Assembly (NCBI RefSeq): GCF_050920415.1
Contig: NZ_CP169309.1
Reading direction: 5' to 3' (one strand)
Origin: Escherichia coli
GTDB taxonomy: Bacteria; Pseudomonadota; Gammaproteobacteria; Enterobacterales; Enterobacteriaceae
DNA: 64,000 nt
The translations under genes and the position numbers were made by a program. Position 1 is the stretch's first letter. Every line of letters starts with the position of its first letter. The notes under the pieces are model-generated. The model did no database searches. It was not told the origin of the DNA and was given only the letters and a program-made list of their open reading frames with translations. This document shows positions 303 through 56,053 of the stretch, in pieces.

Positions 303-454
303 TCGGGACTGATGACAAAAGTAAGATTGCCTGATGCGCTACGCTTATCAGGCCTACATTTACCCTGCAATGCATTGATTTAGCAAGATTTTGCAGGCCG
401 GACAAGGCGCTCACGCCGCATCCGACATGAACAACGCGCACCTTATCAGCAATC

Positions 455-10302: not shown

Positions 10303-11988
10303 GTGAATATAAACGTCGCCGAATTGTTAAATGGGAATTACATTCTGTTATTATTTGTGGTCCTCGCGCTTGGGCTATGTCTCGGAAAGTTACGACTTGG
10401 TTCGATCCAACTGGGTAATTCCATTGGCGTTTTAGTCGTATCGCTGTTATTAGGCCAACAACATTTCAGCATTAACACCGATGCGCTTAATCTTGGCTTT
10501 ATGCTGTTTATTTTCTGCGTCGGGGTCGAAGCCGGACCGAACTTTTTTTCCATTTTTTTTCGCGATGGGAAAAATTACCTAATGTTAGCACTGGTGATGG
10601 TTGGCAGTGCGCTGGTGATCGCCTTAGGGTTAGGTAAGCTGTTTGGCTGGGATATTGGCCTGACGGCCGGTATGTTAGCAGGCTCTATGACGTCAACACC
10701 GGTTTTGGTCGGTGCTGGCGATACACTGCGTCATTCCGGCATGGAAAGCAGGCAGCTCTCACTGGCACTGGATAATCTGAGCCTCGGGTATGCCTTAACC
10801 TATTTAATCGGTCTGGTGAGTTTGATTGTTGGTGCGCGTTACTTGCCGAAATTGCAGCATCAGGACTTACAGACCAGCGCCCAGCAAATCGCCCGCGAAC
10901 GTGGCCTGGACACAGATGCCAACCGTAAGGTTTATTTGCCGGTGATCCGCGCCTACCGCGTCGGCCCGGAGCTGGTGGCCTGGACCGATGGCAAAAATCT
11001 GCGTGAACTGGGTATTTATCGGCAAACCGGCTGTTACATTGAACGTATTCGGCGTAACGGGATTCTGGCAAATCCAGACGGTGATGCCGTACTACAAATG
11101 GGCGATGAAATAGCGTTGGTAGGCTATCCCGACGCCCACGCCCGACTCGATCCCAGTTTCCGTAATGGCAAAGAAGTTTTCGATCGTGACCTTCTCGACA
11201 TGCGTATCGTCACTGAAGAAGTGGTCGTTAAAAACCATAACGCTGTAGGCAAACGTCTCGCACAACTGAAGTTGACCGATCACGGTTGCTTCCTTAACCG
11301 CGTCATTCGTAGCCAGATTGAGATGCCGATTGATGACAACGTCGTGCTTAACAAAGGTGACGTTTTACAAGTCAGCGGCGATGCCCGTCGCGTAAAAACC
11401 ATCGCCGATCGCATCGGCTTTATCTCGATTCACAGCCAGGTCACTGACTTGCTGGCATTCTGCGCCTTCTTTGTTATTGGGCTGATGATCGGGATGATCA
11501 CCTTCCAGTTCAGCACATTCAGTTTCGGCATGGGGAACGCTGCCGGGTTGTTATTCGCCGGAATTATGCTGGGCTTTATGCGCGCTAACCACCCGACCTT
11601 CGGTTACATTCCGCAGGGTGCATTAAGCATGGTGAAGGAGTTCGGCTTGATGGTGTTTATGGCAGGCGTTGGTCTGAGCGCTGGTAGCGGTATTAATAAC
11701 GGCCTGGGCGCGATTGGCGGTCAGATGTTGATTGCCGGATTGATTGTCAGTCTGGTGCCAGTGGTTATCTGCTTCTTGTTCGGTGCTTATGTATTGCGAA
11801 TGAACCGCGCACTGTTGTTCGGCGCAATGATGGGCGCACGCACCTGCGCGCCGGCAATGGAGATCATCAGTGATACAGCTCGCAGTAATATCCCGGCGCT
11901 GGGCTATGCGGGCACTTACGCAATCGCCAACGTCCTGCTGACGCTGGCAGGGACACTCATCGTCATGGTATGGCCAGGATTAGGATAA
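10303..11988 (+). CDS. ybjL: Putative AAE-family transporter YbjL (GTG start)
   Basis: 561-aa [14 protein letters not shown]; duplicated membrane domains flanking TrkA-C-like regions; matches recalled YbjL. Confidence 0.93.
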
Positions 11989-12030
11989 AACTGAAGTTGC
12001 CCTGAAAATGAAATTTTTTTGCACAACCGC

Positions 12031-12060
12031 AGAACTTTTCCGCAGGGCATCAGTCTTAAT
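12031..12060 (+). promoter_or_regulatory. Sigma-E type promoter of rybB
   Basis: GAACTT (12032-12037), 16-bp spacer, TCTTA (12054-12058), about 7 nt before the RybB 5' end. Confidence 0.6.
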
Positions 12061-12064
12061 TAGT

Positions 12065-12143
12065 GCCACTGCTTTTCTTTGATGTCCCCATTTTGTGGAG
12101 CCCATCAACCCCGCCATTTTGGTTCAAGGTTGGTGGGTTTTTT
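12065..12143 (+). ncRNA. rybB: RybB small RNA (sigma-E dependent, Hfq-binding)
   Basis: GCCACTGCTTTTCTTTGATGTCCCCATTTTGTGGAGCCCATCAACCCCGCCATTTTGGTTCAAGGTTGGTGGGTTTTTT matches recalled RybB almost exactly, including the terminator hairpin and U-run; lies in the ybjL-rcdA intergenic region as in K-12. Confidence 0.85.
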
Positions 12144-12162
12144 GTTATCTAAAATTTATCTA

Positions 12163-12699
12163 CTACCCTGCAACCCTCTCAACCATCCTCAAAATCTCCT
12201 CGCGCGATAGCGGCTTACGGTCGGTGACAAAATGCAGCGTCATCCCCTCAATAAACGCATCAAGCGCGCGGGCGGTTCCGGGTTCAAACCATTGTTCGAG
12301 CGTTTGCTGACTGCGCTGCATCCAGTTTTGCATTACCGTTTTTAATAGCGGTTTTCGGCTAGCCAGCGCGTAGAGCTGGTACATCAGCTCCATGTTATCC
12401 GGCGTTGCAACCTGTGAGCTGTAGATCATATCGGTGATAGCCTGGCATGCGCCCGGAGCATCACTAACATCGCTAAAAAATGCCTGATATTGCCGGGACA
12501 TGATCTCAGTAAAACTGCTGAACGCCTCCAGCAACAACTCATCAATTCCTGAAAAATAGTAGGTCATCGACCCCAACGGTACCCCGGCAAGGGTAGCAAT
12601 TTTGCGGTGCGTAACGGCATGTATTCCGTAAAGTTTCACCGCCTCCAGCGTGGCCTGGATAATTTTTTCTCGCCGTTGCGGATCGTTAGCGCGACGCAT
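12163..12699 (-). CDS. rcdA: TetR-family transcriptional regulator RcdA (YbjK)
   Basis: Internal start [13 protein letters not shown] gives 178 aa; TetR HTH region; the track ORF is 10 codons longer. Confidence 0.9.
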
Positions 12700-35749: not shown

Positions 35750-35840
35750 CCCCAGGCCTGATAAGTCGCGACAAGCGTCGCATCAGGCATTTGCTCCAGA
35801 CGCCAGATGCGGCGTGAACGCCTTATCTGGCCTACGGTTC
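35750..35840. repeat. REP/BIME-type extragenic palindromes
   Basis: AGGCCTGATAAG...GCATCAGGCA and GCCAGATGCGGCGTGAACGCCTTATCTGGCCTAC between moeB and fsaA. Confidence 0.6.
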
Positions 35841-42509: not shown

Positions 42510-42615
42510 TCATGCCGGATGCGGCGTGACCGTCTTATCCGACCTACAAAATCATGCAAATTCAATATATTGCGATACACTGTCAGGCCTGATAAGCGTA
42601 GCGCATCAGGCAATT
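42510..42615. repeat. REP/BIME-type extragenic palindromes
   Basis: GCCGGATGCGGCGTGACCGTCTTATCCGACCTAC and AGGCCTGATAAGCGTAGCGCATCAGGCA between ybiU and ybiT. Confidence 0.6.
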
Positions 42616-47044: not shown

Positions 47045-47409
47045 TGTGCTTCCTCATTATGGTGACGCATACATAGCGTTCTCATTTCGTGCGCACATTG
47101 TAAACCAGAGTTGCGAAGGTACAAAAAATTAACGTTTTAGCAATAGCTATATAATATAGCTTTGGACCCCAATAAAAACCAAATGAAAACAATTAATTAT
47201 GAAAGAAATATCATTGTAATGTCGCAAGAATGTCGCAGAATTTTGAATTTTACATCAAACAGAAATCTTACATAAGTCGTCGAAAAGGAAAACTACCAAT
47301 ATCTTTTCGGTGTTTCCTTTCCCCAAATGGAATTTTTCCTGTTATGCTAATATTCGTTTTAAGGTGTTGATAACTAACATTACACAAAGCAATTAGAACG
47401 GATACTAAC

Positions 47410-48984
47410 ATGGCTAAAAACGCAAAAAACGAGAAACCAAAAAAGTTAGCTTATAGAATAAAAAGTATTAATATTGAAAAATTAAAAGGTATAAATAACT
47501 GCCCTATTTCCTTCCCAGCAGACAGGTCTGTAACTGCTATAATGGGAATTAATGGTTCAGGTAAATCAACAATATTGCACGCTCTATCATGTGTTTTCAA
47601 ACCCAAAGAAAAATCATCCCAAGAAAATAATAGATTTTCTGACTTCTTTACCCCTCACAATGAAAATAACTGGCAAGATAGTAAATTCTCAGTAAAATTT
47701 CGAGCGGGAGAGATAAAAAACAATGGTAATAAAGTCTTTTTTGAAGAAATAGATAATGAAGAAAAGAAAGATATTGTTTATGGCAAGGATAAAAGGTGGA
47801 AACCAGTTTACGCAAGAAGACTTGAAAGAGAATCTATATATATAGGATTACAAAATCTTGCAACGTTAGCTGACAATACAGGAGCATCAAGATACTCAGA
47901 ATATGAAAGAGTAGATATTTATGATAAAGATATAAAGAATCAAATGATATTAGCTCTGAATAAAATCTTAGATGCAGATTACAACGATTTGTTTGAATGC
48001 CGCACCATTAAGGGAAACAAAAAATTCATAGGCATGGTTAAAAACGGCATTGAGTATACAGAACATACTATGGGTGCTGGAGAAAAGAGAGTCTTTGAGA
48101 TAGTTAAAAATGTTTATAATGGAAAGTTAATGCCCAATGGTTTTCTAATCATTGATGAAATAGATGTTTTGCTACATGAAAGAGCTTTTCATGAATTAAT
48201 TAATTTTCTTATCGAAGAAAGCAAGTCTATGTGTTTTGAGGTTGTTTTCACAACACATAGAGAATCCATAATAAAGTTTAAAAATCAAATCAATATAGTA
48301 AGTATATGGAACATAGGGAATGGAATAGAGGCTTATCCCGGCGTTTCTGCGGATGCTCTTCGACAGATATCCAATGTAGAACCTGATATGGTCAATGTGT
48401 TTGTAGAAGACAACTTAGCAAAAACAGCACTAAATATTTTAGTTGAAAGTGAAGGTATGAATGAACAAGTTGATATCTCGCTTTTTGGTTCGGCTGAGAA
48501 TTCAGCTGTAATTTTGTCAGGACTTAAATTAACTGGCAAACGAATTGATACAAGCCTGGCAATTTTAGACGGTGATTACTATATTACCCTCCCTGAAAAG
48601 ACCAAAATGGTTGATAGAGTGTTATCTGGAACAGATAAAAAAGTAGAAAAAAAAGAAGTCTTATCAAGAATATTCCAATTCAATTTAGATGTGACTGACG
48701 TCAAAGGCTCTCCAGAAAAAAACCATCGTGATTGGTTTGAATCTATAGACGAAAACAATATTTCGGAAAATGATAAGACAATGTTTCTTAACCTGAAAAA
48801 ACATTCTACAAGTATTGGTGCTTTAACTGATTATCATGAATATTATCCAGAGTTAGCTCGAAGGTCAAAATTAGATAATATTGAGTACAAAGTTTTGAAT
48901 TATATTAGTAAGTATAGTAATAAATGGGATTTTTACATAAATGATATTAGAAATGAAATAAAAAAAGCAATTGCAGCGATCTAA
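47410..48984 (+). CDS. ABC-type ATPase fused to a TOPRIM-like domain; class-1 OLD-family-like nuclease, candidate anti-phage defence protein
   Basis: 524-aa ORF in AT-rich DNA. Walker A GINGSGKST (aa 46-54), signature-like MGAGEKR (221-227), Walker B FLIIDEID (245-252), H-loop TTHR (281-284), then a TOPRIM-like Glu (FVEDN, E333) and DxD (LDGDY, 387-389). Own terminator downstream. Confidence 0.6.
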   Translation: MAKNAKNEKPKKLAYRIKSINIEKLKGINNCPISFPADRSVTAIMGINGSGKSTILHALSCVFKPKEKSSQENNRFSDFFTPHNENNWQDSKFSVKFRAGEIKNNGNKVFFEEIDNEEKKDIVYGKDKRWKPVYARRLERESIYIGLQNLATLADNTGASRYSEYERVDIYDKDIKNQMILALNKILDADYNDLFECRTIKGNKKFIGMVKNGIEYTEHTMGAGEKRVFEIVKNVYNGKLMPNGFLIIDEIDVLLHERAFHELINFLIEESKSMCFEVVFTTHRESIIKFKNQINIVSIWNIGNGIEAYPGVSADALRQISNVEPDMVNVFVEDNLAKTALNILVESEGMNEQVDISLFGSAENSAVILSGLKLTGKRIDTSLAILDGDYYITLPEKTKMVDRVLSGTDKKVEKKEVLSRIFQFNLDVTDVKGSPEKNHRDWFESIDENNISENDKTMFLNLKKHSTSIGALTDYHEYYPELARRSKLDNIEYKVLNYISKYSNKWDFYINDIRNEIKKAIAAI

Positions 48985-48991
48985 ACCTCAT

Positions 48992-49021
48992 AAAAGGCGT
49001 AATTTATACGCCTTTTTTTAA
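48992..49021 (+). terminator. Rho-independent terminator after the OLD-like gene
   Basis: Hairpin AAAAGGCGTAATTTATACGCCTTTT followed by a T-run, 8 nt after the stop. Confidence 0.55.
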
Positions 49022-49181
49022 GGTTTAAATTATAGTTGCTAATTTCTACTCTTTGTTCCCTCTGTTCGTGCACGTTTCAGGTAGTAAGCTCTCCATCGAA
49101 CCATAGAGATTGAACGCTTTGATTTTTTTTTACATACTGTCTGAAGCTCATTTACTAAGTATTGATAGTCAGGATGACAAC

Positions 49182-49808
49182 ATGACCTCCTACGATGAAC
49201 TTAAAGAATGCATCCGCCTTGAAGTCATTGGCCATGACAAATCCTTTTCATGGCGTAAAGCGTTACTTCGTACCCGACGCAACCAGAAGAAGCACTTCCT
49301 GTTCTGGTGGCGTATCGCTTCATGGCTCTATGGCCAGAATAGTAAGTTCAAAAAGCGCATTGCCCGCAGAATTGAAAACCGCCTCAAGTACCTGCATAGC
49401 GTTGATATTTCGCTGTCATGCAAAATCGGCAAGGGTTTAAACATTGCTCATCTGAACGGTATTGTCATTACTGACAATTGCGTGATTGGTGATTTCGCCG
49501 ACCTGAAGCAAGGCATCACCATAGGGTTACGCACCGACAGTGCCGACGCGATGATAGTCATTGGTGATCATGTTGATATTGGCTGTAATTCGTCCATTCT
49601 GGGCGGCAAGGTTACGATCGGAAACAATGTCACCATTGGGGCGCATTCACTGGTACTTCAGAACATCCCCAGCGACACCGTTTATAAAAACAAGATCACG
49701 CCGGTGTATACATCCAAACTACCGCAGCAGGAATATCAGGAAAATCGGCCTTTTGTCACTGGCAAGGCGATAAAAGAAGCGTCCCGTTCCGCAGAAGCGG
49801 TGCTGTAA
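49182..49808 (+). CDS. Hexapeptide-repeat (left-handed beta-helix) acetyltransferase, CysE/WcaB-like
   Basis: Start MTSYDELKE preceded by AGGATG; the 232-aa track start at 49110 has no RBS. N-terminal helical region (RIASWLY...RIARRIENRLKYLHSVDI) then hexapeptide repeats IGKGLNIAH-GIVITDNCVIGD-ITIG-IVIGDHVDIG-VTIGNNVTIGAHSLVL. Confidence 0.6.
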   Translation: MTSYDELKECIRLEVIGHDKSFSWRKALLRTRRNQKKHFLFWWRIASWLYGQNSKFKKRIARRIENRLKYLHSVDISLSCKIGKGLNIAHLNGIVITDNCVIGDFADLKQGITIGLRTDSADAMIVIGDHVDIGCNSSILGGKVTIGNNVTIGAHSLVLQNIPSDTVYKNKITPVYTSKLPQQEYQENRPFVTGKAIKEASRSAEAVL

Positions 49809-50186
49809 TTTCGCTGAACAAATTTCAGTTATGAAGATTGCATAAATTTACGTGCAGCCCGCGCCAGCTCTTACAAGCGGGCTAATCTCTATAATGTCTG
49901 GCTTATCTCCCAACGATCCACGAACACCGCCTAAAATATAATTTTCCCTTTATTATCTGTGCGTTATGATTTTACACCGATCCTTAACAGATCCTCTTTA
50001 CTGAAAAAAATGAAATTTCTTTCAATCATTTCAGTTCCTGTTCTCCGCAAAGCCGCCAGTAATGGTGCGGTCTGGCGCTCTGGTTTGTAGAAAAATAAAA
50101 CTGAAAAAATTTCCAGATCCAGAAACCGCAGGCGGGTGCGGTGTAGCGCCGTTTTTGTCTGCGAAAGATTTATTTTGTCGGCGCAT

Positions 50187-50230
50187 CGCAGCGCCAGCGC
50201 AGCGCCAGCGCAGCGCCAGCGCAGCGCCAT
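50187..50230. repeat. Four tandem copies of an 11-bp unit CGCAGCGCCAG
   Basis: Direct reading: cgcagcgccag x3 then cgcagcgccat, in the non-coding gap between the acetyltransferase and the tail operon. Confidence 0.8.
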
Positions 50231-50315
50231 GCGCACGATCTTTTATGTGTGTTGCGTTGGGTTAATTTGTTGCCTGAAGTGCTGAGGGCGCGTTCTGCTG
50301 CGTCTGAGGAAGGGT

Positions 50316-50342
50316 ATGAAAAAGCCCGCATTATGCGGGCGT
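50316..50342 (-). terminator. Rho-independent terminator at the end of the tail operon
   Basis: On the minus strand, hairpin GCCCGCATAATGCGGGC followed by TTTTTC, 10 nt after the stop of the 567-aa gene. Confidence 0.5.
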
Positions 50343-50352
50343 GTTGTCATGG

Positions 50353-52056
50353 TCAGGCAATTATATTCTGGTACTTGCTCCGGGTCTGCCCTGCTTTCGT
50401 CGCCGTCTGTACGAACGCGTCAGCATTGGTTGGCGTCCCAACAGTGGGGTGTGAATGGTTCGCGCATTGCTGCGCCAGCTCTGCCAGTAAATCAATGGTA
50501 TCCAGCATCATGGTCAGGGCGTTGATACTCTCGCTGCCAATATGGACAGTTGCCCCCATGACCTGCTGACCGCCAGCGGCCACTGATTTACGCAGTGCGG
50601 CAATCTTCTCTGTCAGGCTTTCGCCAACCTCCACGGCTACAGCACCGCCCACTTTAGTGGACTGCTGTCCTGCTATGTCCGTTTCTTCGTTTCCTTCAAT
50701 ACTGGCCAGCCTGTTTCCTTTCACCGCCTGGCTATAATCACCGGCGCTTACCTGCTGGATGGCTCCGGCCAGCAGTGTGGCGGTTCCCAGTACCGTGGTT
50801 TTATCCGTGGCTTTCACCGTGGTTTCACGGCTGACCAGTTCGCGCTGTTCCGTATCGGCTTTTACGGTTCGCGCCATCGATGTTTCGCTGATGGTCTGAT
50901 CGGTCTGCCTTACCCAGTCGCCCGCCTGAGTCACCCTCTGGGATACTTCTTCCCGCTGCTGCTGCAACTGTTCACCGGGTTTAACGTCCGGCAGACTGGT
51001 GCCATCCGGTAGCGTCTGCCTGATAAAAGGTTTATCCGGTCTGCCTCCCGTGAATGCAACCTCAACCAGCGTCCCTTCTGGCGGAAACTGAAACATACCT
51101 GAATCATTCCCGGCCATTGGTACCGGCAGCGGCACCGCTGAATAAACAGGCGTCTGATTGTCCGGGTTTCCGTCTGCGTCAAGCAGCTGCACGTCCACGG
51201 CGTAACGTGGCCGGAAGGGATCGGCAAAGTTACCGCTTTTTACCGGCTCTGAATGCGCCACAACTCTGGCCATCTTTGGCAAATGAAGCCCGGATGCCAG
51301 TTCCGGGTAATGGCTTTCAATCTGCCGTTGCGCCGGTGTTTTCTGCAAAGGTTTACCCGTTGCGCGGTTTCTCGGCGTCCATGTGATCGCCATCGCGTCA
51401 TTAGTCAGGTGAACTTTAGTCACGCGTTCACCGTTCATCTCCACCCCTGGCCGCATAGTCTGGATCACTGGTAATGTCACAGAGTTACCGCCAGCAGCCC
51501 CCTGGCTGAACTCTGACGGGATTTCTACGGGGCGACCGGCAAATAATGACTTTTCTGCGCCGCCGACGTAAAGCGAACCATCAGGCAACTGGTACCAGAT
51601 GTAATCCTGGATACTGAACGCCCTTCCCAGATTGTTCAGCAACTGATAACCAGTACCGTTATGGGTAAAATGTGGGATGGGGGTATCGCTGTACTGTGCA
51701 TCAGGCACACTGACCGTGATCCCGCTGTTTTCTTCCAGCCAGCTGGCAACCTCGCGTAAAGTTGGATGTTGAAATGAGCACGGCCACATCCTTTCAAATA
51801 CACCTGCCAGCTCACGAATGAACAGACGCTGAAAACCGTTTTCAGCGGGCTGCGATCGCTCCACATACCCCGTAAACCAGCGCAAAAGCAGATCGGTATA
51901 CCCCACATCCAGCCGCACCAGTTTTCCGGTGTAATCGGTTGTTGTCTCTGCGGTGATGAAGCCCCGGCCGCAGCTGTTCAGCTCCAGTACCAGGCTGGCA
52001 TCCACCAGGTGAACTTCATCAGTTGAAAGGTAAAGGCGTTTTACTGGTTTCATCAT
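50353..52056 (-). CDS. Phage tail hub/spike-like protein (gpV/VgrG-type OB-fold candidate)
   Basis: 567-aa ORF, last gene of the tail operon; internal segment GTLVEVAFTGGRPDKPFIRQTLPDG resembles the G-x-V-x-V-x-F-x-G-D-x-D-x-P-x-I motif of gpV/gp5/VgrG spikes; Ala/Gly/Thr-rich C-terminal region. Confidence 0.4.
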   Translation of the reverse strand: MMKPVKRLYLSTDEVHLVDASLVLELNSCGRGFITAETTTDYTGKLVRLDVGYTDLLLRWFTGYVERSQPAENGFQRLFIRELAGVFERMWPCSFQHPTLREVASWLEENSGITVSVPDAQYSDTPIPHFTHNGTGYQLLNNLGRAFSIQDYIWYQLPDGSLYVGGAEKSLFAGRPVEIPSEFSQGAAGGNSVTLPVIQTMRPGVEMNGERVTKVHLTNDAMAITWTPRNRATGKPLQKTPAQRQIESHYPELASGLHLPKMARVVAHSEPVKSGNFADPFRPRYAVDVQLLDADGNPDNQTPVYSAVPLPVPMAGNDSGMFQFPPEGTLVEVAFTGGRPDKPFIRQTLPDGTSLPDVKPGEQLQQQREEVSQRVTQAGDWVRQTDQTISETSMARTVKADTEQRELVSRETTVKATDKTTVLGTATLLAGAIQQVSAGDYSQAVKGNRLASIEGNEETDIAGQQSTKVGGAVAVEVGESLTEKIAALRKSVAAGGQQVMGATVHIGSESINALTMMLDTIDLLAELAQQCANHSHPTVGTPTNADAFVQTATKAGQTRSKYQNIIA

Positions 52057-52601
52057 TAACCCAAAGCATCATTGACGGGCTTCAGCACCTTGCGTTCAAA
52101 CCACGTCAGTTTTTCTTCATCTTCTCCGGCAGACTGGCCACCGGACTGTCCCGCACTGCCGGTAGTCTGTTTTTTTGCGGTCGTCTTACCTGTTGCCCTG
52201 GCCTCTCGCTTTTCCTGCACGCTGATATGTTCCGCCAGTGTGAATGTCACCAGCCAGGCCATTTTCCCGTCCTGCTGGGGTGCATCCAGCATTCCGCTGA
52301 ACGTTGCTTCACGAAAATTAACAGCACGGGCAACTTCATGCGCCACGCGGTACTTCTGACGATTACCACTGGCATCGGTAGCACTGGCCAGCTCAAAAAT
52401 ACGCTTCAGTATTTCAGGCTGTTTAAAAGGTATTTCACCGCTGATCCGCAGTTCCTTTCCCTTTGCTCCCTGCTCTGATTTTGTTGTGGCGCTGGTCTGG
52501 CCGGACTGATCTTTATCCTGAAATTGCTGTGAAACAGTCACCCGCATGTTTTTCAGCTGGATGGCCTCGCCATTAAGCGCCAGTGTCGGGATCGAAGTCA
52601 T
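52056..52601 (-). CDS. Phage protein of unknown function within the tail operon
   Basis: 181-aa ORF translationally coupled to neighbours; no recognisable motif; Lys/Gln/Gly-rich C-terminus. Confidence 0.35.
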   Translation of the reverse strand: MTSIPTLALNGEAIQLKNMRVTVSQQFQDKDQSGQTSATTKSEQGAKGKELRISGEIPFKQPEILKRIFELASATDASGNRQKYRVAHEVARAVNFREATFSGMLDAPQQDGKMAWLVTFTLAEHISVQEKREARATGKTTAKKQTTGSAGQSGGQSAGEDEEKLTWFERKVLKPVNDALG

Positions 52602-53298
52602 GAATCATTCCCTTTATTCCATCAAGATTATCGCCAACCAGCATCATGGCAGCGGTGTAAACGGCAGACTGCTGCGGAATGTCCTTCACCAGTTCCAGTA
52701 ACGTGGTGCCGGTGTCTCCGCTGGCAGTAAAAACCCACACTCTGGCACTCTTTCCCTGTAAATCATTCAGGCCGCTGGCTACATCACTGATAAGCTGGTC
52801 ACGCAGCTGCGTGAACTCGCCCAGCTGTTTTTTCAGCCCTTCGATATCAAACCCGGCATCCGCCGCCTTTTGTGCCTGGCTGATTGCCGTAGCAGATAAA
52901 GCTGCCCTGCTGGTTGGTACAGACAGCGGAATGGACGCAGGTAACGCTGCGGCGGTTTTCGCAGGGATCTGCATCTTTTCAATAGCCAGCGCTGCGGCGG
53001 ATTGCGCCAGTCGTTTGACCTGCGTGAATGCCGGGGCGGGGAAAATCCCGACCAGGTTATTCAGGCTGGCCATAAAGTTTTCCTGTGTCTGTCCGGTGAC
53101 CATCATAATCACCACGTCCGCATTCCCCCCAGTTCCGGCCAGGCGTTCAGCAAGATAGCGAACGGCATTAACCGGGCTGAGATATGCCCCGTTCGCAGTC
53201 TGCTGTCCCAGCCCATAAATCCACGGATGCGCAGGAACGATCGAACAGTTCAGCGCAGCAACAGAATCCGTGAAGGCCAGACGTGCTTCACGCCACAT
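52573..53298 (-). CDS. Phage protein of unknown function within the tail operon
   Basis: ORF 52573-53334; start chosen at MWREARL to minimise overlap with tfa; no recognisable motif. Confidence 0.3.
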   Translation of the reverse strand: MWREARLAFTDSVAALNCSIVPAHPWIYGLGQQTANGAYLSPVNAVRYLAERLAGTGGNADVVIMMVTGQTQENFMASLNNLVGIFPAPAFTQVKRLAQSAAALAIEKMQIPAKTAAALPASIPLSVPTSRAALSATAISQAQKAADAGFDIEGLKKQLGEFTQLRDQLISDVASGLNDLQGKSARVWVFTASGDTGTTLLELVKDIPQQSAVYTAAMMLVGDNLDGIKGMIHDFDPDTGA

Positions 53299-53875
53299 TT
53301 CCAGGCACCTCCGGCCACACAATTTCCGGCGCATCTTCCGGTTGAATACGGTTCAGTAAAACGCGGTATTTTTTCCAGGCGGTAAGCAGCAGTGCTTCTT
53401 CTTCAGTCGCCATGTCTAAATCAACGGCATCCTGCAATGTGGCAATGGCGTCATTGGCCTGTTTAAGCAGTCTTTTCTTTTCGGCGTCTGCCTCGCTGAC
53501 TAATGCAATTCGCATGGCCTCCGCATCATCCACCCACGCCTTACCATTCCATTTTTGCCAGGCATTAGCCGGTGCAGACGTGGTTGTCCCTTCCGGGTAA
53601 GCGCCTGGCTCGGTGATCACCAGTTCATTACCGTTTTCTGTATCAAACACCACCTCACCACGATGATCCTCACGGGAAATCCATCTTTGCTTCTCTGAAT
53701 CAAAAATTGCCACAAACCCCGCTTTGATTACCGGTGGTTTTATTGTGGTGCAGTTAGCTGGTAGTCCGGTATGCGCAGGTATAAAAGCGTCACCCGAACC
53801 AATAAATTCATTCGTGTCGGAACGCAGGTTATAAACAGTAACTATTTGATCGGTTTCACTCATTTTAAAAGTCAT
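53288..53875 (-). CDS. Tail fiber assembly protein (Tfa family)
   Basis: 195 aa; close resemblance to recalled E. coli TfaE/TfaQ-type proteins (NEFIGSGDAFIPAHTGLPAN ... KWNGKAWV ... LLTAWKKYRVLLNRIQPEDAPEIVWPEVP). Confidence 0.8.
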   Translation of the reverse strand: MTFKMSETDQIVTVYNLRSDTNEFIGSGDAFIPAHTGLPANCTTIKPPVIKAGFVAIFDSEKQRWISREDHRGEVVFDTENGNELVITEPGAYPEGTTTSAPANAWQKWNGKAWVDDAEAMRIALVSEADAEKKRLLKQANDAIATLQDAVDLDMATEEEALLLTAWKKYRVLLNRIQPEDAPEIVWPEVPGNVA

Positions 53876-55449
53876 TATGCGAGTCTCACTATGTAGTTAA
53901 ATGCAATATTCTTAACGGTCGTTTCTGCGTTGCCCGACGCGGCGACGGTAATGGTGTGGCTATGTGCGCCAATTGCCACGGTATGAGAGTGAGCGCCAAT
54001 ACCTACGGTGTGATTATGTGCACCAATGGCTACGGTGTGCGCGTGGTTTCCCGCCGAACTGGTGGCGGCTCGCCCCTGATCGCTACGTGGTACCCCCCAG
54101 TCACTACCACCTGATTGCACGTTCCCGCCATAACCAATGGTGTGCGTATGCGCTCCCGTGGTATTTGTCGTTTTCGTGCCATAGTCAAACGTGCTCGCCG
54201 TTTTAGTACCGTAATCAAAGGACGATGTTGGTTTTGTCCCCAGATCGGTACTGGATGCACTGGCTGTGTGGTCATGAGATTTATTGCCATCATCTTCATA
54301 GGAGAGAACTGCGCGACCGTCTGGCTTTCCTTTGATTGTCTGGCGGCGCATGTCAGTAATAACACCCGATGGATACGCAGCAGCCAGCAAAGGATATGCC
54401 GCCGTATTAAAAGACTGCCCCTGCATAATTGCCCATCCAGTAGGTGGGATATCCGTTGGCCATGGAAGCGGCACACCAACCGGCAGAACATCACTGCGAC
54501 TTAAAACGGCCAGTTCACCCAGATCCAGACTTTTTCTTGCTTTTACTTTGTCGTTAACATCAGCAAGGTTTGCATCCTTACGCAAAAAATCGCTGCTGGC
54601 CTGCTGTTCTCCCAGGCTACCTTTTGGCCTTAAATCCGTGATGTTGCCATCCGCATCAATGCTGGCCACAGCAAACACATAATGCTGAACCCCGTTCTGA
54701 ACGTAATCAGCAAGATTTGCAGCCACCGTGATTTTGCTCTGCACATTCCAGACACTGGTCAGCGTCCCTGTCCAGCACACATCCAGCCAGACTTTTACCG
54801 GCTTTGTCGTTACCGTAATATTCTGATTCGCAGCCAGTGACGCACGAAGTCCAGCCACATACCCCGTGCCTTTCGTGACAAAAAACTGATTTCCGGTTTT
54901 GGCTACCAGATACCCGTTACCAAAAAACGCCGCCGCGCCATAAATATCCATATTTTCCAGGCGCTGGCGCTCATCCATTCCGGCCATACGCGCTGTAAAA
55001 TCAATCTGCCATGTTTCAGCGGGTGTATTAATCCCGGTTTCCGTTTGTGCGCCGTTGTACTCCATCAGAAACGAGCGGGTCAGCACGTTCCCCTGTTGAC
55101 CTTCTTTTGTTTTCAGTTTCTGCTGTGATGGTGCATGGACAATCATTGCCAGAGTACCGCTGGCCTTATTGAGCAGACCGATCCAGTTAAAACTGAAATC
55201 ACCCACATCTGCGCCCAGCACTACGGAATAAACCACCCCGTTTTCATTCACCACACCGGTGCGGGTAACAGATTGCCGGTGAACAATCTGTGCTGTCGGG
55301 GGCAACGCTTCATTGCGGTCAACAGGTGTATCCGGGTTTAAATCCGGCACACTGGCAAAAACAAATTCATCCAGTAGTACCGGTTCACCCGTTGCGCCCT
55401 GCTGTGCTTTCCAGTTTTCAAACGCCAGTGTGATGGCTGTCTGTGACAT
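53875..55449 (-). CDS. Side tail fiber protein
   Basis: 524 aa; C-terminal HxH repeats [49 protein letters not shown] typical of Stf-family fibers; immediately upstream of tfa. Confidence 0.8.
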
Positions 55450-55459
55450 AAAAACCTCC

Positions 55460-56053
55460 TTACAAACTCGCGCTGAATGTTGCGCTGCGGGCTTCCGTCC
55501 CTGCTAACGTCGCCGGGTAAACCACATATTCCCCCTGATCCCACCCAGCCCTGATAACCAGGCTTTCAGACGTGATCACCTCAAACTGATAACGGCGGCA
55601 TGTTCGCCCGTACTGGCGGATTATCTGGATCAGCAGCTGCGTGTTGTCTGCAATCTGGCTGTCTGTAACCCGAACCAGAATCACATCCCAGTCGATATCC
55701 GGTTGCCGTTCTAACAGCTCCACATAACCAATTCCCAGCCGTTCAAAGATATTGATAAACCCCTCTACTGAACCGGCATCCCGCGCATTCACGAAGGCAA
55801 AAGCCACGCGTTTGCGGAACAGGGTCAACGGTTCACCATCAAAGCGGGTGATATCCCGGTCATAAGCCAGCAGATTCAGTAATGCCGGTGTACACGTCAG
55901 CGGATCAAACTGGTTCATTGGCCAGGTAACCCAGCCGTAAACCTCAGCCCAGAACCGCCGCGCCGCTTTCAGCAATTTCCCCGGTTCACCTTTATTCATC
56001 CAGGAAGGCAAGACCATCCCGGCCAGCTTTTTCATGAACTCATTCATTCTCAA
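55460..56053 (-). CDS. Tail protein, YmfQ/gpI-like (DUF2313-type)
   Basis: 197 aa between the baseplate J-like gene and the fiber, as for e14 ymfQ; family assignment is from memory only. Confidence 0.55.

Follow-up and report, generated by a model that had tools for sequence, protein, structure and literature searches.

An intact rybB gene with its own sigma-E promoter and intrinsic terminator between ybjL and rcdA of Escherichia coli

Identity and annotation of the rybB locus

The window, that is the whole stretch of 64,000 nucleotides analysed here, carries the gene for the small RNA RybB between ybjL and rcdA. The features of the locus are as follows.

10303-11988, + strand: ybjL, aspartate:alanine antiporter family, the upstream neighbour on the rybB strand
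12005-12024, + strand: A/T-rich, UP-element-like tract upstream of the -35 element (positions -60 to -41), 80% A+T
12031-12039, + strand: -35 element AGAACTTTT, core GAACTT at 12032-12037
12053-12058, + strand: -10 element GTCTTA
12065-12143, + strand: RybB sRNA, 79 nt, from RF00110 and the alignment to K-12 b4417
12065-12080, + strand: 5' seed GCCACUGCUUUUCUUU, RybB nt 1-16, the target-pairing end, same as in K-12
12099-12143, + strand: Rho-independent terminator, a 12-bp stem (12099-12110 with 12128-12139), loop 12111-12127 and U-run 12138-12143
12120, + strand: T (C in K-12), RybB nt 56, in the terminator loop
12133, + strand: G (A in K-12), RybB nt 69, turning the pair U41-A69 into a U41-G69 wobble
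12134-12159, no strand assigned: unoccupied Felsduovirus (P2-family) attachment core, made up of 10 nt from the rybB 3' end and the 16 nt that follow, from attL/attR of strain KE47
12163-12699, - strand: rcdA, TetR-type regulator, convergent neighbour of rybB

A scan of the entire 64-kb window with Rfam covariance models placed RF00110 at 12068-12146 (+) with 104.8 bits against a GA of 40 (E 1.7e-20). The match was full-length, covering model positions 1-79 without truncation, and sits 3 nt off the annotated RNA at 12065-12143. K-12 rybB (b4417) aligned to the latter interval over its full 79 nt with 77 identical bases (97.5%), the mismatches being window positions 12120 and 12133, and the 80 nt upstream of rybB, promoter included, were identical in the window and K-12. 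The curated K-12 record places b4417 at 887979-888057 on the minus strand, 79 nt between rcdA and ybjL; the order ybjL-rybB-rcdA in the window is that of K-12 with the orientation reversed, and orthology to b4417 is borne out by both sequence and position. The first-pass annotation had described a near-exact RybB match of 79 nt with an intrinsic terminator in the ybjL-rcdA intergenic region, and had proposed a covariance-model search and an alignment to K-12 rybB as checks. Both checks returned RybB, the flanking genes were confirmed, and the RNA extends from the G at 12065 through 12143, closing in a 12-bp GC-rich hairpin followed by six U residues. The start coordinate given by that annotation, 12031, is the A preceding GAACTT.

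The rcdA stop codon lies 19 nt past the RybB 3' end. Read in the direction of rcdA, the RybB hairpin has no T-run after it, so that read-through from rcdA would be antisense to RybB.

RybB had also been put forward as the only RNA gene supportable in the window. This stands in so far as no tRNA or tmRNA was found in the window and the K-12 record has no further annotated ncRNA in the portion common to both, but it does not extend to naRNA4, a REP-type repeat at 35755-35832 (-) that scored 73.7 bits against an Rfam threshold of 59.5. The other Rfam matches in the window (ES036, IS009, STnc40 and UCA1) fell below threshold. Among these, ES036/CssrF matched REP-type repeats at 350-392 (-) and 42548-42590 (+) with 37.2 and 29.9 bits respectively (threshold 37.6), and IS009 matched 53334-53532 (-), between tail genes of a prophage, with 42 bits (threshold 117, E 2e-6).

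The description of the gene as invisible to the ORF track was fair: the PGAP-annotated RefSeq records of E. coli that were sampled leave rybB without a feature despite an Rfam score of 105 bits, and the curated K-12 record alone carries the ncRNA. The 251-nt stretch around rybB was 100% identical to that of strain MFDS1022581. Among 5426 complete E. coli genomes, 5422 contained this stretch and 5418 contained rybB itself. RybB is a well-known, textbook envelope-stress sRNA of E. coli. The copy found here is complete and sits at its normal locus; the finding is sound but unremarkable, and the element is one already known, with nothing new in the finding itself. Its value is mainly that of correct annotation, automated protein-centred annotation leaving RybB out.

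Promoter, terminator and seed

A collection of species-representative genomes was scanned with an exact 25-nt pattern taken from the 5' part of the RNA, which yielded at least 120 loci from Escherichia, Salmonella, Klebsiella, Enterobacter, Kluyvera, Serratia, Yersinia, Xenorhabdus, Providencia, Sodalis and others; 116 species were aligned. Because the search pattern was exact, the conservation of nt 3-27 is given by construction and divergent homologues lie outside the sample.

Positions 12031-12143 of the window read aGAACTTttccgcagggcatcagTCTTAattagtGCCACTGCTTTTCTTTGATGTCCCCATTTTGTGGAGCCCATCAACCCCGCCATTTTGGTTCAAGGTTGGTGGGTTTTTT. The arrangement GAACTT-N16-TCTTA that had been noted upstream of the RNA was recovered as such, with GAACTT at 12032-12037, a 16-nt spacer and TCTTA at 12054-12058, and the +1 G at 12065 follows six nt past the -10 element. 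The -35 element, spacer, -10 element and +1 are the same as in K-12 base for base. Against the published sigma-E consensus, GGAACTTTT at -35 and GTCAAA at -10 (PMC1804206), AGAACTTTT agrees at eight of nine positions and GTCTTA at four of six; the hexamer reaches only four of six, yet it is that of the experimentally characterised K-12 promoter. A simple promoter/terminator scan found no sigma-70 promoter on the + strand. The strict pattern GAACTT-N16-TCTNA had a single occurrence in the window, where shuffles predict 0.07, while 1.43 occurrences per window of the looser GAACTT-N15-17-TCNNA are expected by chance. As the loose motif alone is not significant, the evidence for a promoter comes from where the motif stands relative to +1 and from its phylogenetic footprint.

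Among the matches listed, the 116 Enterobacterales species representatives conserved -33 to -27 (GAACTTT) at 97-100% and G-12, T-11, C-10 and A-7 at 100%, with T-1 and G+1 invariant, whereas the two middle positions of the -10 element varied and, around a spacer length fixed at 16, the spacer sequence and positions -45 to -35 varied freely. Further upstream, the A+T content at -60 to -41 averaged 77% in the 116 species versus 43-49% in the adjacent -40 to -35 and in the spacer. Sigma-E promoters, including that of rybB, have been described as carrying UP-elements (PMC3326320), and from its composition and position the tract at 12005-12024 would act as one.

The surroundings of the gene admit another reading, in which the hairpin serves ybjL alone, as its terminator or 3' UTR, with the promoter a chance motif and the short RNA a processing product of ybjL mRNA. 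On the strand of ybjL, rybB follows after 76 nt and no other terminator-like site intervenes. The adjacency is conserved, at a distance of 68-106 nt from the end of ybjL, in 83 species representatives among the matches listed, and a loose sigma-E motif is not rare by chance. A chance motif would not, however, be expected to keep its -35 and -10 elements at constant spacing to +1 in different families amid a variable spacer and variable DNA just upstream, nor to be followed by an invariant G+1 across the species alignment. In published work, rybB promoter activity is lost in an rpoE mutant and promoter fusions show strict rpoE dependence (PMC1804206), and sigma-E-dependent transcription of rybB has been demonstrated for the identical K-12 promoter and for Salmonella (PMC4102768, PMC1804206, PMC3326320). 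Moreover, ybjL was not detected upstream in 29 loci among the matches listed (23 + 6; by eye Xenorhabdus, Providencia and Sodalis), and there rybB persists with its promoter. Derivation of the RNA from ybjL is thus extremely unlikely, and rybB, being kept with its promoter where ybjL was not detected, is better regarded as an autonomous unit. On the other side of the gene, rcdA was the downstream neighbour in only 27 cases among the matches listed. The hairpin may also stop read-through from ybjL, a role that is compatible with an independent gene.

The minimum free energy (MFE) fold of RybB was -25.0 kcal/mol. Judged from the single sequence the fold was modest (z-score -2.17, with 10 of 200 shuffles folding equally well), whereas comparison between species supported the terminator. 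Standard pairs filled 97.4% of the cells of the stem, six of the 12 pairs showed compensatory changes on both sides, and the covariation score was reached by none of 500 shuffles; sliding the partner strand by 1-3 columns lowered pairing to 17-50%. The stem exists between species as CCCAUCAACC/GGUUGAUGGG, CCCGAUAGUC/GACUAUCGGG and CCCGAGCGUC/GACGCUCGGG. The hairpin of 12 bp with its U6 tail stands at the RybB 3' end, and it was missed by the simple terminator scan because its 17-nt loop exceeds the 3-8 nt limit of that scan. The terminator and U-tail of RybB are described as its Hfq-binding module (PMC6694218).

The same pattern of substitution bears on whether the region could code for a small protein. 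Open reading frames on the + strand, of 29, 43 and 71 aa, share sequence with the RNA; they include a 29-aa GTG frame at 12063-12152 and a 43-aa frame at 12079-12210. The GTG at 12063 precedes +1 and is not transcribed, the frame of the internal AUG reaches the terminator without a stop, and species differ by loop indels of 1, 2 and 3 nt. Stem substitutions occur as compensatory pairs and not as variation at third codon positions, and conservation extends to nt 1-2, which lie outside the search pattern (the invariance of nt 3-27 being by construction). A coding function is vanishingly improbable.

The 5' end of RybB is its seed (PMC6694218), and GCCACUGCUUUUCUUU begins here at +1, with G1 and C2, the positions outside the search pattern, invariant in the 116 species among the matches listed. 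Seed nt 1-16 were compared with -150 to +60 of ompC, ompA and ompW, the target sequences being those of K-12. Sites of the GCAGUGGC type were found in ompC (-50 to -41), ompA (+20 to +33) and ompW (+5 to +21), with duplex energies of -17.4, -17.5 and -15.5 kcal/mol respectively; shuffled seeds matched these energies in 0.8%, 0.4% and 2.2% of trials. The complementarity of the seed to omp mRNAs accordingly applies to the K-12 target sequences. A 4-bp helix between CCAC (nt 2-5) and GUGG (nt 31-34), suggested by the MFE fold, was rejected for lack of covariation, its A4-U32 pair being broken in 33 of 65 distinct sequences. The lack of support for a 5' helix fits a free, single-stranded seed.

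Identity, promoter motifs and their conservation, terminator covariation, synteny and seed complementarity were all observed directly in this analysis. We place the probability that 12065-12143 (+) is an intact rybB gene with its own sigma-E promoter at 12031-12058 and its own intrinsic terminator at approximately 97%.

The U56/G69 allele and phage attachment sites

Allele frequencies were counted by blastn with the 38-nt segment 12106-12143. An identical segment was present in 153 of 5420 E. coli records, 739 were one base off and 4528 were two bases off, the last being the K-12 type; 30-nt megablast probes gave lower bounds only, of 263 and 151 genomes. The combination of U56 and G69 is a minority allele (approximately 3% of complete E. 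coli genomes) of an otherwise near-invariant gene. Its rarity, and the fact that no other listed species representative with the CCCAUCAACC stem has G69, could be taken as signs of a decaying or altered allele in which the two bases weaken the terminator/Hfq module and leave the level or activity of RybB unlike that in K-12. The sequence of the terminator loop can indeed matter for some sRNAs, namely SdsR, RseX and ArrS, while such an effect is unreported for RybB (PMC11979758). G69 retains its pair as a U-G wobble and the predicted structures of the window and K-12 RNAs are alike (-25.0 versus -25.2 kcal/mol); nt 56 occupies a loop position that varies freely between species, and the seed, promoter and U-tail are untouched. 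An impaired allele is therefore very unlikely, and rybB is regarded as intact in this strain.

The 3' end of rybB coincides with a phage attachment site. Felsduovirus prophages have been reported to integrate in rybB, as hotspot #29 (PMC10121019), and a Fels-2-like island occupies rybB of Klebsiella (PMC4048246), so that the use of rybB as a Felsduovirus att site is already described. In strain KE47 an insert of approximately 35.8 kb has at both ends a repeat corresponding to window 12133/12134-12159, the final 10-11 nt of rybB plus the next 16 nt; attL is matched by window 11900-12159 and attR by window 12133-12400, and the core common to both is that of the attB in the window. The attL side of KE47 retains a complete rybB, the RNA gene remaining whole there because the integrated phage brings a replacement 3' end. 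With an attL junction probe at a coverage of 80% or more, at least 736 of the 5426 complete E. coli genomes gave a match. In the window the alignment with K-12 runs through the site without a break, and no prophage is therefore present at rybB.

G69 was considered as a scar of phage integration and excision because it borders the att homology and is matched by a G in the phage arm. This was rejected, as the base at attL is that of the bacterium (G in KE47 but A in two further records) and a crossover would find no homology to the left.

The core of the window and K-12 is GTTATCTAAAA, whereas GTTGCCTGAAA, differing at 3-4 positions, is found at occupied sites, in other Escherichia species and in many genera. 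Just past the terminator, outside the RNA, GTTGCCTGAAAT(T) recurs in Escherichia albertii, Kluyvera, Klebsiella, Serratia and Yersinia. The GTTATCTAAAA of the window and K-12 is a derived form, and the recurrence possibly reflects homogenisation of the att core by phages. The sequences also invite the suggestions that the rare U56/G69 allele might alter stability or termination, or that the GTTATCTAAAA core might cut Felsduovirus integration as a kind of 'att-site immunity'; that either applies is unlikely.

Copies of rybB in records labelled as plasmids were considered as evidence of a mobile rybB and rejected, these being either mislabelled chromosomes of 4.8-5.4 Mb or circles of 36-74 kb. 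Five circular 'plasmids' of the latter size (NZ_CP148399.1, NZ_CP148584.1, NZ_CP019246.1, NZ_CP019257.1 and NZ_CP148327.1) join potF-ybjN-rimK-nfsA-grxA-ybjL-rybB to P2-like prophage genes at the rybB att site, and P2-like late genes directly adjoin ybjL-rybB in the plasmid-labelled records. Such circles may be aberrantly excised prophages or assembly artefacts.

A different P2-family prophage, with genes for tail fibre, baseplate J, tape measure and GpR, occupies 47161-64000 and continues beyond the window end. Its insertion point falls in the mntS promoter, between mntR and mntS/rybA and 2-3 nt before the annotated start of rybA. The window diverges at approximately 47160 from K-12, where rybA/mntS would follow, and from MFDS1022581, an otherwise identical strain without a prophage at 47161; through the insertion rybA/mntS is displaced beyond the window end. 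Among 5426 complete E. coli genomes only AHB29 has the prophage junction, at 92% identity. There the core TATAATATAGC is duplicated and the mntS -10 box (TATAAT) is rebuilt at the far junction, while the upstream promoter/operator DNA of mntS is replaced by phage DNA. At the mntR-side end of the prophage, cargo genes at 47410-49808 (+) encode a 524-aa AAA/SMC_N-type ATPase, which in Pfam also matches AAA_15 and AAA_21, and a 232-aa hexapeptide acetyltransferase. Such a position at a prophage end is typical of P2 accessory or anti-phage loci.

Expected function and relation to known systems

Three sigma-E-dependent sRNAs, RybB among them, switch off the synthesis of outer-membrane proteins in envelope stress. 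In K-12 and Salmonella, sigma-E is freed when outer-membrane proteins misfold, the rybB promoter is among the strongest of the regulon, and RybB binds Hfq and through its 5' seed represses many omp mRNAs, closing a homeostatic loop (PMC4102768, PMC6694218, PMC1804206). From this literature we infer sigma-E dependence, Hfq binding and target repression for the present strain, and as promoter, seed and terminator are intact its envelope-stress circuit is expected to be complete. Misfolded outer-membrane proteins would cause the anti-sigma factor RseA to let go of sigma-E (RpoE), whose holoenzyme would fire the rybB promoter. With Hfq bound to the terminator and U-tail, the free 5' end GCCACUGCUUUUCUUU would pair with sites of the GCAGUGGC type in ompC, ompA and ompW, blocking translation of these mRNAs and hastening their decay. 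Fewer new porins would then be loaded on the stressed envelope, with feedback on sigma-E.

As a phage target, rybB resembles the tRNA and tmRNA genes whose 3' ends serve as att sites, its last 10 nt lying within the 26-bp core 12134-12159; unlike occupied RNA-gene att sites, that of the window is empty. MicA and MicL share with RybB the dependence on sigma-E and Hfq and the lowering of abundant outer-membrane proteins (PMC4102768). Their sequences and loci are unrelated to RybB, MicL being cut from a 3' UTR and targeting lpp, and neither was found in the window by the Rfam scan. MicV and VrrA of Vibrio cholerae share the seed core CRCUGCUUUU with RybB and can be replaced by E. coli RybB (PMC6694218); they have no homology to it outside the seed, so that the resemblance is one of function and not of family. 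The closest counterpart is K-12 RybB (b4417, RF00110), with the same locus, length, promoter and seed and 77 of 79 bases in common, from which the RNA of the window differs by C56U in the loop and by the A69G wobble, and the adjoining DNA by T (C in K-12) at 12155, 12 nt downstream of the gene in the att core.
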